34,384 nucleotides of DNA from Acidimicrobiia bacterium. GTDB lineage: Bacteria > Actinomycetota > Acidimicrobiia > Spongiisociales > UBA5794. This document shows, piece by piece, positions 15,825 through 21,653 of the stretch. Each line of letters opens with the position of its first letter. Position 1 is the first letter of the stretch. The DNA lies in assembly GCA_032127155.1 (NCBI GenBank), contig JAQAZV010000260.1, forward strand, positions 1 to 34,384. The letters run 5' to 3'. The notes below the pieces were generated by a model. It was not told the origin of the DNA. It was given only the letters and a program-made list of their open reading frames with translations, and searched no databases. The position numbers and the translations under genes are program-made.

Positions 15825-15917
15825 CTCCGGAACGATACGGAGCCATCGAAGGCCTCGTGACGCTCCTCATCCCGGGACTGCATCCGCGCCGTATGCTCGG
15901 TGTCGAACAGGAGATCG

Positions 15918-16535
15918 ATGGAAACCCTCCCCATGTTCCCGCTCGGATTGGTCGCTTTCCCCGGTAGCGTCATCCCGCTTCGCCTGTTCGAAGAGCGATA
16001 TCTCGCCTTGCATGACTCACTGCTCGAGGGGGACGGCGAGTTCGGCATCGTGCTCATCGAGCGTGGAATTGCTGAAGCAGGGGGCGGAGAGCACTTCTCC
16101 ACGGGTTCCGTTGTGAAGTTGGTGGGGTCGACCGACCTCGAGGACGGATCGGTGATGATCGTCACCGTCGGGACCGACCGCCTCAGGGTCGATCAGTGGC
16201 TCGAAGACGACCCGTACCCGCTCGCGATCGTGGAGAGGCTCCCCATGCCAGCGGCGGGAGGATCTGCCGATTCGCTGGTGGCAGAATGCATGGGACTCCT
16301 CACGACGCTGCTCGCCCATGCATCCGAGCTCGGTTCGGATGTCGGGCTGACCCTGCCCACCGTGTCGGATGACCTTGCAGTCGCGCTCTACGAACTCGCT
16401 CACATGGTTCCGATCCAGGAGCTCGATCAGCAGCGCATCCTCGAATCGGCCGATGTGGCTTCCGGCGCGGAGATCCTCAAGGAAGCAATGGAAGGCGCAA
16501 TAGCGGTGCTCGAGATGCAGCTCGGCGAGTCCTGA
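15918..16535 (+). CDS. Stand-alone Lon protease N-terminal (substrate-binding) domain protein
   Basis: LPMFPLG.VAFPG..IPLRLFEERY, FGIVLIERG.EAGGG, W.EDDPYP and DQQRILE. No AAA+ or protease domain. AGGAG RBS before ATG 15918. Confidence 0.9.
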   Translation: METLPMFPLGLVAFPGSVIPLRLFEERYLALHDSLLEGDGEFGIVLIERGIAEAGGGEHFSTGSVVKLVGSTDLEDGSVMIVTVGTDRLRVDQWLEDDPYPLAIVERLPMPAAGGSADSLVAECMGLLTTLLAHASELGSDVGLTLPTVSDDLAVALYELAHMVPIQELDQQRILESADVASGAEILKEAMEGAIAVLEMQLGES

Positions 16536-16616
16536 CGAATCGCAACTCCCGGTCGTCTGCCGTCTGACACGCGAGCCACCGCTAGCTTGGAGTCAATCCT
16601 CCGACATGAGAGTGCC

Positions 16617-18509
16617 ATGGCGACCACACCACGACCGTTCGATGACGCCTTGATCCAGTCCGTTCGCAAGCGCCTTGCCGCGAACCATCGCGTGCGTCGG
16701 ACCCTCCCCGCAGGGGGCAGGCTGAACATCGACCGACAGCTCCCGTTTCTCGTCGTTCATCGACCCCGCCGTGGCCAAACCGTCGACCTCACACGCTTCG
16801 TGCGTGGCGAGGCGTCGTACCTCGTGGCACCGCGAGGCACGACGCACCGTGCCCAGGTGTCCAGCCTCATCTCTGGCATCGCTGAAGACATGGTTGCGGT
16901 CTTCGGTGCCTTTGGCATCATCGAGCTTTGGGCAGAAGAGGGCGATCCCGCCGAGCAGTCGGACAATGGAGTCGACCAGCCCCGCTTCTCGATCGCTGTC
17001 GCCAAAGCCGACGCGGGCGCACCGGCCGTCCGCGCGCTCGAAGCAAATCTCAGGAACATCAGCATCCTCGGGAAGAAGGCGGAGGTCACATTCGATTTCG
17101 GTCGCACCGCGCCTCCGGGTCTCCGGCGTATCAACCCGAAGGTCGGCGCCACGGACTCGCCGATCCGGTGGCTCGGCGTCGGAATGCGGCCGATCCACGA
17201 GGACAGCGAGACGGGAACGGAGTATCCGGCGGTGGCGCGCAGCCTGCATCGACAACTCTCCCGTACGATGCAACGAACCGCCTTCGAGTTTGCACGAAGG
17301 CAGACAACCCAACGGCCCCGCCACTACCAGGCACTCGGCCGTCGGGCCTTCGTGAAGGCTGCGCGTACGGCGGACCACCAATTGTCCGACATCGCATCTT
17401 CGTTCGATCTTCTGCTCCTTGTCACCCCTGTGAACACGGAACAGGAGTACCGAAGGTTCACCAAGAACAAGGGCGGGCGAGCTCCTCGCTTCGAATATCG
17501 ACCCCTCGACGTCGACGCGACCATTCTGAAGCGGAGGCTGTACGCCACACCGGTTGAACGGGTGGAGGACCCAACACTCGAATCCCTCTTCAGGGAGAAA
17601 CAGCGTGAGCTGTCCCTGAAGCTCGACCTGCTCTCCGACCGCAACACACCGCGGTTCCTCCACTCCGGTATCGCCCTGTACGGCACGGTCGACCAGTCCA
17701 CGCTTACGAGCGCCACCGACCTCCTCGCCAAGCTCGGCCATGAGCGGGACACCCGGCCGAAGAAGCCGGTGCCCGCCCAGGAGGTGGCGCGACGGGCGGA
17801 AGCGGAACTCGAGCACTACCGGGCGATGATGCCCGAAATGAAGGCCACGGTCACGGTGCGGGACGATTTGACGTCACTCATGGTGAGCGATGGCCACGTC
17901 CTCGTCGGCGCCTCGGTGCGGGTTCCGTCCGACCGCGTGAATGCCCTCATCCAACACGAGGTGGGGACGCACGTGGTGACCTTCTGGAATGGTTCGGTGC
18001 AGCCCCTTCGGCTGCTATCGACCGGCCTCGCCGGTCATGACGAGCTCCAGGAGGGATTCGCGGTGCTCGCCGAGCATCTGGTTGGTGGCCTCACGCCTGG
18101 GCGACTTCGGACCCTTGCGGGAAGGGTGATCGCCGCGGAGTCGATCATCGACGGCGCGGAGTTCATGGATACCTACCGGGTTCTCAAGGAAGACAACCAC
18201 TTCCTCCCGAGAACAGCGTTCCAGATCACAACTCGCGTCCATCGCGGTGGGGGCCTCGTCAAGGATGCGGTCTACTTGCGGGGTCTGAAGAAGGTGGTCG
18301 ACTACCTCGCAGACGGCGGTCGGCTCGACACGCTCCTCGTCGGCAAGATCTCGGTGGAACATACCGCCGTCATAGAGGAGCTCCAGCGAAGGGGCCTCCT
18401 CAAGCCGCCGCCGCTGCGCCCTGCCTATCTCGACGACCCGGACACGTTCTATCGCCTCGAGGACCTCAGGCGCTCCCCGGACCTCCTCGGCCTCGCCGAG
18501 CACGTGTGA
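16617..18509 (+). CDS. QEGLA-motif zinc metallopeptidase (DUF1704 / MATCAP-like), long form with extra N-terminal domain
   Basis: HEVGTH (HExxxH) at about 17955-17972, LQEGFA at about 18045-18062, RVHRGGG, KDAVYLRG and LLVGKI. Confidence 0.88.
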   Translation: MATTPRPFDDALIQSVRKRLAANHRVRRTLPAGGRLNIDRQLPFLVVHRPRRGQTVDLTRFVRGEASYLVAPRGTTHRAQVSSLISGIAEDMVAVFGAFGIIELWAEEGDPAEQSDNGVDQPRFSIAVAKADAGAPAVRALEANLRNISILGKKAEVTFDFGRTAPPGLRRINPKVGATDSPIRWLGVGMRPIHEDSETGTEYPAVARSLHRQLSRTMQRTAFEFARRQTTQRPRHYQALGRRAFVKAARTADHQLSDIASSFDLLLLVTPVNTEQEYRRFTKNKGGRAPRFEYRPLDVDATILKRRLYATPVERVEDPTLESLFREKQRELSLKLDLLSDRNTPRFLHSGIALYGTVDQSTLTSATDLLAKLGHERDTRPKKPVPAQEVARRAEAELEHYRAMMPEMKATVTVRDDLTSLMVSDGHVLVGASVRVPSDRVNALIQHEVGTHVVTFWNGSVQPLRLLSTGLAGHDELQEGFAVLAEHLVGGLTPGRLRTLAGRVIAAESIIDGAEFMDTYRVLKEDNHFLPRTAFQITTRVHRGGGLVKDAVYLRGLKKVVDYLADGGRLDTLLVGKISVEHTAVIEELQRRGLLKPPPLRPAYLDDPDTFYRLEDLRRSPDLLGLAEHV

Positions 18510-19289
18510 TCACTGGTCGAGTTCAGCTCGTACGGCACCGAAGGCGACATGGAGCGCATCCCCGATACCGGCGATCATCGACTCGTAGGGCTCCCCTGTC
18601 CACTCATCCATGTAGATCTTCTTCATCTCGATCGCAAGGGCGCACCCACGACCCGCATATCGCTCGTTGATCCAGCGTGACATGAACCCACCCTTGAAAC
18701 GTACGTTCTCGCGCACGTCGAGGTAACCCCCGTCGAAGGGATGCTCACGCATTCCCTCCGAGAATGCATCAACGACCGTACCCCACAGCGCTCGATCCAC
18801 CGTTCCCGTGCCAACATTGATCTCAGGATTCGCCTCGGGGTCATCGACGGGTGCGTCGGCTCCACGACGGCGGTGGTTGTAGCTATGAAGGTCGAAGACC
18901 ACGAACCGATCGTTCGCTGCGGCTGCCGCGTCACACATCACAGCGAGGTCGCGGTAGAACTCGTCGTAGACATCGAGGGATGCGGCGACCAGTTCTGCGC
19001 TCGGCGGGGACGTCCACAGGTCGAGACCCCACGCGTCGTCGGGCTTCTGATAGACGGAAATGTCCCTTGCACGGTTGAGGTCGACCTCGAACCGTGACCG
19101 ATCGACCACGATCGAAGCGTCACCGTTACCGACCCACCGGTCGGTGAACGGATCCTCTTCGCGGAGTCGCTCGTCGTCAGCGAGGGCCGTCAGCTCGGCC
19201 ACCTCGGGGCGGAGGCTGTGTCCTGCGTGGATCGCCGTTGCGATGATCGGCCCATCTCCTGTGACGATCTGCCATGCGGGTTCGGTCAT
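18510..19289 (-). CDS. N-formylglutamate amidohydrolase family protein (Zn exopeptidase fold)
   Basis: TAIHAGH, REEDPFTD, SRFEVDLNR, DLHSYN, ENVRFKGG and AIEMKK. Its start overlaps the ligase stop (ATGA). Confidence 0.9.
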   Translation of the reverse strand: MTEPAWQIVTGDGPIIATAIHAGHSLRPEVAELTALADDERLREEDPFTDRWVGNGDASIVVDRSRFEVDLNRARDISVYQKPDDAWGLDLWTSPPSAELVAASLDVYDEFYRDLAVMCDAAAAANDRFVVFDLHSYNHRRRGADAPVDDPEANPEINVGTGTVDRALWGTVVDAFSEGMREHPFDGGYLDVRENVRFKGGFMSRWINERYAGRGCALAIEMKKIYMDEWTGEPYESMIAGIGDALHVAFGAVRAELDQ

Positions 19290-20362
19290 AGGGTTGCCAT
19301 CTCCCGGTTGTCGAACTTTCGTTCGTAGTAGCCCATGTACTGCACCTTGCGCTCGAGGGAGTCCAGCACGGCCTCGTTGAAGTTCACACCCTCGAAGCGT
19401 TGGGCGGATCCGAGGCCGCCAGGGCTGAACACATTGATCTCCATCAGCTTGTTGCCGACGATGTCGAGGCCGACGAGGAACATGCCGTCCTGGACGAGCT
19501 TCGGCCGTACCATCTCGGCGAGCGCGAAGGCATCGTCGTCCAAGTCGGCCTTGGCAAGGCTCCCCCCTGCGTGGATGTTGGATCGCATGTCACCGCCACG
19601 TCGAATCCTTCGGAACGCGGCGTACCGTCCGCGATGGCGAAGAGGGAGCCCGTTCATGAGGAAGAGCCTCGTGTCGCCCTCCTCTGCCTTCTCGAGGTAC
19701 TCCTGGGCGATCACGTACCCGTCCCTCGTCACGGCATCGATGATCTGGTTGAGGTTTGCAACGTCGTCATTGCGGACCAGGAACACACCCTCGCCGCCCG
19801 ACCCCTGGAGTGGCTTGAGGACGCATTTCCCGCGATCCTTGACGAAGGACTTGATCTGGGCGCGATCCCTGGTGATGAGGGTGAGCGGGCGAACCTCCTC
19901 GGGGAAAGTCTGGAAATACATCTTGTTCTGTGCTTTGGCGAGCCCGTTCGGATCGTTCACAACGATCACGCCATTGCGCATCGCAACGCGTCCGAAGTCG
20001 ATGGCGGCCGACTTTGCCCAGTCGCGACGTCCCTTCTCCGTTGACGGGTCGTTCCTGAGCATCAGCACGTCGAGGTCATCGACCGTGATGCGTTCCGAGA
20101 TCGCCTTGGCGCCCTGGAGGTCTGCGAGGTAGGCCTTCCCCTCCTTGTACCGCGTCTTGGGAACCCGACGGGCGACGGCGCGAACACGCTCATCGGGGTC
20201 GTACTCGAGATTTCCGACGCTGATGACCCACGGTTCCCAACCGCGGTTCACCGCGGCCACGCCGAGGCGCGTGGTGGTATACCCAGCTTCCTCGGTTGAA
20301 ATGTCGTTGACGACGAAGGCAAGGCGCATCGGGTAGCGGCCCTTTCGGAGAGGGGTTTCCAC
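19286..20362 (-). CDS. Glutathione synthetase (GshB)-like ATP-grasp ligase, divergent subfamily
   Basis: LRNDP, VLKPLQGSGGEGVF, AQEYL, GDTR, RSNIHAGG and GLDIVGNKLMEINVFSP. Start is GTG 20362 (after TAGGCT) or ATG 20329. Confidence 0.88.
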   Translation of the reverse strand: METPLRKGRYPMRLAFVVNDISTEEAGYTTTRLGVAAVNRGWEPWVISVGNLEYDPDERVRAVARRVPKTRYKEGKAYLADLQGAKAISERITVDDLDVLMLRNDPSTEKGRRDWAKSAAIDFGRVAMRNGVIVVNDPNGLAKAQNKMYFQTFPEEVRPLTLITRDRAQIKSFVKDRGKCVLKPLQGSGGEGVFLVRNDDVANLNQIIDAVTRDGYVIAQEYLEKAEEGDTRLFLMNGLPLRHRGRYAAFRRIRRGGDMRSNIHAGGSLAKADLDDDAFALAEMVRPKLVQDGMFLVGLDIVGNKLMEINVFSPGGLGSAQRFEGVNFNEAVLDSLERKVQYMGYYERKFDNREMATL

Positions 20363-20441: not shown

Positions 20442-21653
20442 TCAGGCGAGATCCTGGATCAGGTCGACAACGCGGTCGACCTCGTCGATGGTGTTGTAGT
20501 GCACGAACCCGATCCGTACGAGGCCCTCTGGTCGGTTGAGCTTCCGCATCACCTCGTATGCGTAGTAGTCGCCCGACCATACGAAGCACCCCGCTTCACC
20601 AAGGATCGCCGCGACGTCACCGGGCGTACGGCCGTCGACATCGATGGCAAACGTCGGCGTCCGCCCGGTGGGCGTCGGTTGGCCGAAGAGGGTCACTCCC
20701 GGTGTTTCCGCGATGCGGGCGAGGAAGCGGTCGGAGAGCTGAGCCTCGTACTCGCGGATCGCACCGTATGCAGAGACGATGCGTTCACGTCGCGTAGCCC
20801 CCTTCCCGAGTGATGCGATGTAATCGACTGCGGCGGTCACGCCTGCCAACGACTCGAACGCCTGGGTTCCGGTCTCCCATCGATCGGGAGTGGTATCGGA
20901 GGCTGGCCGAAGCTTGTACGGCTGGAGGGAACCCAACAGGTCGTGTCTTCCGTAGAGACAGCCGGTGTGCGGACCGAACCACTTGTAGGCAGACGCTACG
21001 AGGAAGTCTGTTCCCGCTCGAACGACGTCCACGAGGCCGTGGGGCGTGAAATGAACGGCGTCCACATAGGTCAAGGCACCAGCAGCGTGTGAGATGTCGA
21101 CGATCTGGTCGATCGGAGTGATCGTTCCCACCGCATTGGATGCAAGTGTGCAGGCGACGAGGCGGGTGCGGGAATCCACGAGGGACTCGAGGGATTCAAC
21201 GTCCAGCCGACACCCCTCGCCAGGCTCGAAATCGACGAATCTGACCTCGGCGCCGCGATCTGCCGCCGCTTGCATCCATGGCGCGACGTTGGCGTCGTGA
21301 TCGAGGCGGGTGACGACGACGTTGTCCCCCGGTCCCCACGTCCGTGCAATGGCTCGGGAGACCGAGTAGGTGATCGAGGTCATGTTCTGACCGAATGCGA
21401 TCTCGCCAGGCGTGGCACCAAATAGATCGGCGACAGCCGATCTCGCCCCGTCGAGAACGGCATCGGTTTCGGCCGAAGATGCGAACGATCCGTGCAAATT
21501 GCTCCCCCCGCGCTCCATGAACCCTGTCATCGCTTCGATCACCGACGCGTGTGCCTGGGTTCCTCCTGGTCCGTCGAGGTAGGCCGCAGGCGAACTGCCA
21601 ACCGTGCGGGCAAGGGCGGGAAAGTTCGAACGGACGGCTGTGATATCGAGCAT
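20442..21653 (-). CDS. Cysteine desulfurase-like PLP enzyme (aminotransferase class V, VC1184-type)
   Basis: FPAL, YLDGPGGTQ, DHDANVAPW, ASNAVGT, VDAVH, SAYKWFGPH (PLP Lys), ETGT and VRIGFVHYNT. Confidence 0.9.
   Translation of the reverse strand: MLDITAVRSNFPALARTVGSSPAAYLDGPGGTQAHASVIEAMTGFMERGGSNLHGSFASSAETDAVLDGARSAVADLFGATPGEIAFGQNMTSITYSVSRAIARTWGPGDNVVVTRLDHDANVAPWMQAAADRGAEVRFVDFEPGEGCRLDVESLESLVDSRTRLVACTLASNAVGTITPIDQIVDISHAAGALTYVDAVHFTPHGLVDVVRAGTDFLVASAYKWFGPHTGCLYGRHDLLGSLQPYKLRPASDTTPDRWETGTQAFESLAGVTAAVDYIASLGKGATRRERIVSAYGAIREYEAQLSDRFLARIAETPGVTLFGQPTPTGRTPTFAIDVDGRTPGDVAAILGEAGCFVWSGDYYAYEVMRKLNRPEGLVRIGFVHYNTIDEVDRVVDLIQDLA

Follow-up and report, generated by a model that had tools for sequence, protein, structure and literature searches.

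A 34,384-nucleotide stretch of DNA from an Acidimicrobiia bacterium (GenBank assembly GCA_032127155.1, contig JAQAZV010000260.1; hereafter the window) encodes a peptidase in which a zinc carboxypeptidase domain of the MATCAP type is preceded by an N-terminal domain (N-domain) homologous to the N-formylglutamate amidohydrolases (FGase family, PF05013). An FGase gene and a gene for an ATP-grasp ligase lie next to the peptidase gene, and FGase, peptidase and ligase genes form one conserved system, a conclusion supported by a survey of 80 loci (hereafter the triad). On balance, we think it probable that the N-domain is a non-catalytic, FGase-derived module that binds an acidic, glutamate-like part of the substrate or product of the triad and thereby serves the carboxypeptidase domain. 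The parts of the protein are as follows (residues are numbered from the first codon of the listed open reading frame (ORF)):

16587..18509, plus strand: gene of the two-domain peptidase, with the FGase-like N-domain and the MATCAP-type zinc carboxypeptidase (ORF list, Pfam, NCBIfam).
16671..17306, plus strand: N-terminal FGase-fold domain, residues 29-240 (profile-profile comparison and predicted structure).
16689..16769, plus strand: most conserved stretch (family consensus RVRRTLPxGGRLxIDRQLPFLxVYRP), rich in invariant Arg, a candidate ligand-binding site.
16923..16931, plus strand: E113-L-W115, aligned in the hhalign register with D133-L-H135 of the FGase D-x-H-S motif.
17172..17204, plus strand: strand LGVGMRPIHED, aligned with FGase LAIEMKKIYMD, with G199 on the invariant Glu221.
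17307..17372, plus strand: conserved linker between the domains, TxRPxHYxALGRRAxVKA (T240, P244, H246, L250 and G251 near-invariant).
17373..18464, plus strand: MATCAP/DUF1704 catalytic domain (PF08014, residues 290-620; TIGR02421, residues 263-626).
17955-17972, plus strand: HEVGTH, the HExxxH zinc motif, intact.
18048-18062, plus strand: QEGFA, with the Glu of the QEG(L/F)A motif, intact.

The initial annotation, based on a hand alignment, had described positions 16740-17292 (residues 52-235 of the 640-amino-acid ORF) as resembling a catalytically dead copy of the neighbouring amidohydrolase. Ordinary sequence searches do not detect this relationship. A Pfam scan of the 640-amino-acid protein at E ≤ 1 assigned no family to the N-terminal ~260 residues, PF05013 (gathering score of 28.9 bits) included; the same PF05013 model detects the product of the neighbouring gene with 83.3 bits. 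BLASTP of the N-terminal 268 amino acids against the FGase of the window gave a best E value of 0.13 over 16 residues, which were not colinear, and the hand alignment alone is therefore without pairwise statistical support. Searches of the PDB with a hidden Markov model (HMM) of the N-domain retrieved no chain at E ≤ 10, and those with the full-length profile retrieved only MATCAP chains, plus one chance match (E 0.27). Note that the HMM of the FGase subfamily to which the window enzyme belongs barely finds the solved FGases (2odf, E 0.62), so the silence of plain HMMs says little. Furthermore, a feature search of the ESM Atlas, with MATCAP clusters excluded, returned a best score of 0.86, which is under the lead level, and no FGase cluster was among the results.

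Comparison of profile with profile supports the homology of the N-domain to FGases, with sequence evidence of moderate strength. The full-length family alignment (116 sequences), compared by hhalign with an alignment of 55 relatives of the FGase of the window, gave a weak match (probability 5.4%, E 0.0071, 168 columns), which was nevertheless in the same register as the hand alignment. With an alignment of the N-domain only (the window and the 80 loci, which come from many phyla; 81 sequences), the match had a probability of 73.8%, an E value of 2.9e-5 and a score of 42.1 over 169 columns; against 68 FGases from the same loci the values were 83.7%, 8e-6 and 45.7. These scores of 42-46 compare with 15.3 and 15.6 for reversed alignments, with a maximum of 23.9 (mean 17.4, standard deviation 2.45) in 40 block-shuffles, and with a maximum of 28.4, the highest control value, in 30 block-shuffles of the diverse set. 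hhalign reproduced all four colinear blocks proposed earlier without a change of register, apart from a two-residue gap before the last two residues of the second block. In addition, a search of a small number of ORFs, drawn from 12 loci, with the N-domain HMM found one operon FGase (domain E 3.5e-4).

The profiles also support a closer kinship of the N-domain with the FGase type that is encoded in these operons than with canonical FGases. The operon-type FGases scored 42-46 against the N-domain (31.6-42.8 in six subsamples of 10 sequences), and ten canonical actinobacterial FGases scored 23.4. The operon-type and canonical FGases are themselves related with an E value of 4.6e-13.

The predicted structure points in the same direction. 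The AlphaFold2 model of residues 1-268 (predicted local distance difference test (pLDDT) 87.6, predicted template modelling (pTM) score 0.84) supports a three-layer alpha/beta fold of the FGase type, i.e., a fold similar to that of zinc exopeptidases, as the initial annotation had anticipated. In a Foldseek search of the model against the PDB, the FGase 2q7s (E 6.9e-5) did not stand out from nucleoside phosphorylases by E value (4.5e-5 to 1e-4). In template modelling (TM) score, 2q7s was the best by far (0.48, as compared to 0.25-0.35 in the other listed rows). VIA-align ranked an FGase at the top of 48,161 chains, 3.5 Z units above the next family. The N-domain differs from the solved members of PF05013, i.e., 2q7s (Ralstonia eutropha) and 2odf (Atu2144), in that the loops leading from the first strands to the long helix are ~40 residues shorter.

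The N-domain is conserved and widespread. A word-index search at E ≤ 0.001 matched 246 database proteins, and those listed are nearly all MATCAP proteins of ~630 amino acids; the record titles of the N-domain loci span more than a dozen phylum-level groups. Among 1.84 billion representatives, 877 clusters (50% identity) match the N-domain profile at E ≤ 1e-3, and the best 150 of these 877 all belong to the N-domain family itself. The domain was found fused to MATCAP, aside from short matches of 211-360 amino acids, which may be fragments at contig ends or free-standing domains. In one further protein (P0301, 405 amino acids), residues 1-81 are the C-terminal end of an AbgT-type transporter and residues 90-336 the N-domain; this protein may be an artefact of gene calling or a hint of a transporter neighbour.

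The most telling feature of the N-domain is what has become of the FGase active site. In the FGases of the operons, H21, H24, D133, H135 and E221 are invariant (55 sequences, the window enzyme included), and H135 aligns with the His of the D-x-H-S motif of the 10 canonical FGases. At the corresponding position the N-domain of the window has a Trp (W115), as had been pointed out in the initial annotation, and this replacement is a property of the whole family: Trp is present in 116 of 116 sequences of the full-length alignment and in 77 of the 81 N-domain sequences, the four exceptions being S, S, R and A, and His is found in none. The neighbouring E113 is invariant in both sets. The second replacement noted earlier, of the conserved strand-end Glu by Gly, is real in the window (G199) but not family-wide, Glu being kept in 62-75% of the sequences (E 87, A 14 and G 5 of 116; E 50, A 13 and G 7 of 81, Ala, Gly and Ser together accounting for no fewer than 23 of the 81 and for most of the non-Glu residues). 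Thus, as judged from the alignments, it is as a requirement that the strand-end Glu has been lost at the level of the family, and Gly199 is a feature of the clade of the window. In PghP/PghL and in carboxypeptidase A, zinc is coordinated at strand ends by the series His, Glu, His, and catalysis depends on another, distal Glu. By analogy, we take the motif His of FGases as the third metal ligand and the strand-end Glu as the catalytic base. With the former lost and the latter dispensable, the N-domain has probably lost the ability to bind the catalytic metal and to hydrolyse amides. The poly-gamma-glutamate hydrolases PghP/PghL (MEROPS M86; 3a9l, 5onj) are active zinc enzymes, and the second His is absent from the N-domain of the window.

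The strongest conservation of the N-domain lies in residues 35-61. Among the 81 sequences, D49, R50, Q51, P53, F54 and R59 are without exception; R37 is kept in 79 and H47 in 76 (the window has N47). In the AlphaFold2 model, the invariant polar residues are located at the C-terminal ends of the strands 44-48, 54-58, 109-116 and 193-200 or immediately behind them. Active sites of the FGase-type fold lie at the C-terminal ends of strands. The position of the conserved residues suggests that the N-domain may retain a binding site, as opposed to being a mere spacer. In low-confidence columns (global and low-mact modes of hhalign), R45 and D49 fall on R66 and D70 of the SRxxVD motif of both operon-type and canonical FGases.

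The window sequence departs from the family consensus at five positions that are otherwise well conserved, namely N47 (16725-16727), H58 (16758-16760), G110 (16914-16916), G199 (17181-17183) and E205 (17199-17201), where the consensus is His47 (76/81), Tyr58 (75/81), Leu110 (78/81), Glu199 (50/81) and Arg205 (58/81). At any of these positions the residue of the window is shared by at most 7 of the 81 sequences. N47 is commoner among the relatives rich in Acidimicrobiia (27/116).

Several points weigh against reading the N-domain as a non-catalytic binding module of FGase origin. The homology is based on profile-profile and structural evidence only, Pfam (E ≤ 1) and PDB HMM searches (E ≤ 10) being silent, and the parts that the His and Glu of FGases play in catalysis are taken by analogy from PghP/PghL and carboxypeptidase A. 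That the conserved residues cluster in one pocket is deduced from their places in the secondary structure. hhalign and VIA-align disagree on the N-terminal strands, the former putting residues 44-53 on the SRxxVD motif (with low confidence) and the latter pairing model residue 41 with chain residue 10; no firm counterpart was found for the first metal ligand, the His of the P-H-(A/S)-G (PHAG) motif, a candidate being position 58, which is Tyr in 75 of 81 sequences and His in the window. Furthermore, Glu is still the majority residue at position 199, and H47 (76/81), D49 and E113 (both 81/81) could in principle make a different metal site. Finally, MATCAP proteins devoid of the N-domain (see below) could mean loss of the domain, not the ancestral state.

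Alternatively, the N-domain could still be an enzyme in most members, with a rebuilt site in which, e.g., H47, D49 and E113 act as ligands and Glu199 as the base, and only the clade of the window (N47, G199) would have decayed. The near-universal presence of H47, D49 and E113, the frequency of Glu199 (50/81 and 87/116), the off-consensus residues of the window at 47, 58, 110, 199 and 205, and the conservation of segment 35-61, which is as strong as that of a catalytic site, would all fit such an enzyme. Nevertheless, we regard it as unlikely. Since 23 or more of the 81 sequences have Ala, Gly or Ser in its place, Glu199 is an improbable candidate for an essential general base; no sequence retains the motif His, and a His/Asp/Glu site at these positions is a conjecture without structural support.

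If the N-domain is indeed a binding module, it would serve a peptidase domain that looks active. The peptidase domain matches PF08014 (E 1.5e-90, 304.3 bits as compared to a cut-off of 27) and TIGR02421 ('QEGLA motif protein' of NCBIfam; 344.2 bits, cut-off 338.65), its HEVGTH and QEGFA motifs are intact, and H457, E458, H462, Q488 and E489 are invariant in 150 sequences of the MATCAP domain. The full-length AlphaFold2 model has a pLDDT of 92.6 and a pTM score of 0.89, and the latter suggests that the two domains are held in a fixed arrangement; the pLDDT of the linker is 64-75 in this model as compared to 54-59 in the model of the N-domain alone. The top Foldseek match of the full-length model is human MATCAP (7z5g; E 2.9e-8, target TM score 0.67-0.69), and the FGase 2q7s recurs for the N-domain at rank 10. 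Human MATCAP/TMCP1 (KIAA0895L; 7z5g, 7z5h, 7z6s), a tubulin tyrosine carboxypeptidase, belongs to the same family as the C-terminal domain of the window protein. However, in the profile search the matches of the solved human chains are confined to the C-terminal catalytic part (profile positions 442-627), and none of these chains matches the FGase-like N-domain.

The initial annotation had suggested substrate binding, allostery or heterodimerisation as candidate roles of the N-domain. In the mechanism that we propose, the Arg-rich set R37, R45, D49, R50, Q51, R59 and E113 would have been kept at the C-terminal strand ends, i.e., at the place of the ancestral active site, and would bind an acidic, glutamate-like part of the substrate or product. 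The N-domain would then hold this part and present it to the attached carboxypeptidase domain, report its presence to this domain, or gate it.

The organization of the loci points to one conserved system of three genes. Among the 80 loci encoding the N-domain, 70 have an operon-type FGase, 73 an ATP-grasp ligase and 67 both. The order FGase, N-domain-MATCAP, ligase on one strand is found in 55 loci (two of them with an extra ligase upstream), and the convergent layout of the window in 6. Three of the 10 loci without an FGase are cut by the end of the contig on that side (L001, L012, L067), and in six of the seven loci without a ligase the sequence stops with the peptidase gene or no more than about 130 bases beyond it; L033 alone has full flanks and neither partner. 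One of the 80 loci (L068) is from a culturable bacterium, Kolteria novifilia Pan216. Several loci, some of them from Planctomycetota, contain two or three tandem ATP-grasp paralogues (L008, L012, L041, L043, L044, L047, L051, L057), and two tandem N-domain-MATCAP genes are present in L008 and L012. The initial annotation had held that the resemblance of the N-domain to the amidohydrolase ties the convergent genes of the window into one system. The system is conserved, as the 67 loci with both partners attest, but the link rests on synteny and fusions and not on the resemblance of the domains.

The genes are tightly coupled in most loci, and in some of them the reading frames are joined. In L026 (5209-7908), a single open frame of 900 amino acids comprises FGase, N-domain and MATCAP, with both Pfam families confirmed; in L027 (5215-7029), one frame comprises FGase and N-domain, and the MATCAP part of this locus has frame breaks; in L031 (5947-8925), MATCAP and the ATP-grasp ligase share one frame. 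In addition, a database protein (P0244) consists of an FGase part followed by the N-domain. The joined frames of L026, L027 and L031 may be natural fusions or, for single loci, assembly errors. Such frames (L026, L027, P0244), together with the tight coupling of the genes, would be expected if the N-domain chiefly docked the separate FGase, so that enzyme and pseudo-enzyme formed a pair and both hydrolases were part of one complex. We consider this rather improbable: the fusions mean a functional linkage and not a contact between these particular domains, and the invariant Arg-rich residues resemble a site for a small ligand more than a protein interface.

The gene order also bears on the origin of the N-domain. 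In 55 of the 80 loci, what separates the FGase gene from the MATCAP domain is precisely the N-domain. Within the phylum of the window, 15 of 301 genomes have a MATCAP match (the tally counts two genomes flagged as unpublished, whose sequences were left unused), and 4 of these 15 possess short-form triads with FGase, MATCAP without the N-domain, and ATP-grasp ligase on one strand (L109, L110, L111 and L113, from genomes G078, G125, G147 and G238, respectively). One of them (L113, G238) is from the same order as the window. In these short forms the peptidase gene begins about 100-300 bases after the FGase gene, and in the long forms of G124 and G281 the N-domain exactly fills the gap between FGase and MATCAP. 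A second MATCAP subfamily (L097-L100, from G095, G290, G091 and G137) scores 361-401 bits with the Pfam model, its open frames being 453-506 amino acids long, and has no FGase, ligase or N-domain within 1.5 kb on either side; it is apparently a separate branch that is differently embedded.

An origin by duplication and fusion fits the position of the N-domain, the N-domain-less triads in the same phylum and order, and the conservation of the three genes as one system. Most likely, judging by the sequences, the FGase gene that lies directly upstream of the peptidase gene in the widespread FGase > peptidase > ATP-grasp operon would have been duplicated in tandem, and the peptidase gene would have gained the downstream copy at its 5' end by fusion. 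This copy would then have decayed at its metal site, with the motif His lost and the strand-end Glu no longer required. The ancient duplication and fusion postulated in the initial annotation is thus consistent with the gene order, the N-domain-less triads and the fusions, the order of the events being our inference.

The N-domain could instead stem from elsewhere in the wider zinc-exopeptidase/phosphorylase-hydrolase fold group, its adjacency to the operon FGase being a coincidence of recruitment. We find this quite improbable, as the next family trails FGase by 3.5 Z units, the profiles align motif for motif over the 169 columns and far above the shuffles, and the N-domain is found exactly where a tandem duplicate of the FGase gene would be. 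That the resemblance is fortuitous and the N-terminal region has nothing to do with FGases, as the non-significant BLASTP comparison of the window proteins and the silent Pfam and PDB HMM searches might suggest, is hardly credible in view of the agreement of two independent lines of evidence, i.e., the controlled profile-profile comparison and the predicted structure with FGase at the top of 48,161 chains.

The other genes of the triad and the flanking genes of the window are as follows:

18510..19289, minus strand: FGase-family amidohydrolase of the operon type, 259 amino acids (PF05013, E 3.6e-23, 83.3 bits).
19286..20362, minus strand: GshB-like ATP-grasp ligase (NF009110, 457.5 bits as compared to a cut-off of 408, match from residue 12; PF02955, E 3.3e-51).
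15900-16535: stand-alone protein with a LON substrate-binding domain (PF02190, E 6.5e-27).
20442-21653: cysteine desulfurase-like protein (TIGR01976, 461.9 bits).

The positions of the peptidase and FGase genes are those given in the initial annotation. All 50 residues that are invariant in the alignment of 55 FGases are present in the FGase of the window, which is the only FGase found in the source genome (92% complete). The stop codons of the convergent peptidase and FGase genes abut at 18507-18512 (TGA followed by TCA) with zero spacer, which leaves no space for a terminator between them. The stop codon of the ligase gene overlaps the start of the FGase gene as ATGA (19286-19289), which suggests translational coupling of ligase and FGase. 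The starts in the ORF list are probably too early for both the peptidase (16587-16631) and the ligase (20327-20362), since homologues and the family model favour ATG 16617 and ATG 20329, respectively. The peptidase ORF has 640 amino acids if started at TTG 16587; the true start is probably ATG 16617 (630 amino acids), as the closest homologues have 630-631 amino acids and cover 96% of the query. Positions 1-8 of the ORF are gapped in at least 76 of the 116 aligned sequences. For the ligase, the true start is probably ATG 20329.

Our search of the literature on DUF1704, bacterial MATCAP, TIGR02421, PF05013/FGase and the pairing with ATP-grasp ligases, with most subscription journals outside its scope, retrieved nothing on the N-domain or on the bacterial proteins, and nothing on the N-domain was found in PMC10499314. 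We thus found no description of a MATCAP peptidase with an attached, degenerate domain of the FGase fold in the literature; an assignment in InterPro, Gene3D or ECOD may exist.

A more far-reaching, and in our estimation doubtful, possibility is that the dead FGase copy still shares with its active parent the recognition of an acyl- or peptidyl-glutamate moiety and passes this moiety to MATCAP, the triad being a coupled write-and-erase machine for glutamate-containing tails of a peptide or protein. In such a machine the ATP-grasp ligase would add residues, MATCAP would trim them from the C-terminus, FGase would remove the last amide-linked unit, and the pseudo-enzyme would be the reader. If this were true, bacteria would possess in the triad a counterpart, and perhaps even a precursor, of the eukaryotic cycle of tubulin tails (TTL/TTLL ligases versus MATCAP).

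The function of the triad does not follow from the assignment of the N-domain alone. What the assignment provides is a fold, a likely origin and testable residues for about 240 previously unannotated residues in at least 877 protein clusters (50% identity). The N-domain would furthermore be a clean example of a pseudo-enzyme born from the duplication of an operon neighbour and its fusion to the next gene, for which N-domain-less forms and fusions of FGase, domain and peptidase both survive in present-day genomes. Finally, the assignment suggests ligands of related chemistry for both hydrolases of this widespread ligase/hydrolase triad, which narrows the search for the substrate.

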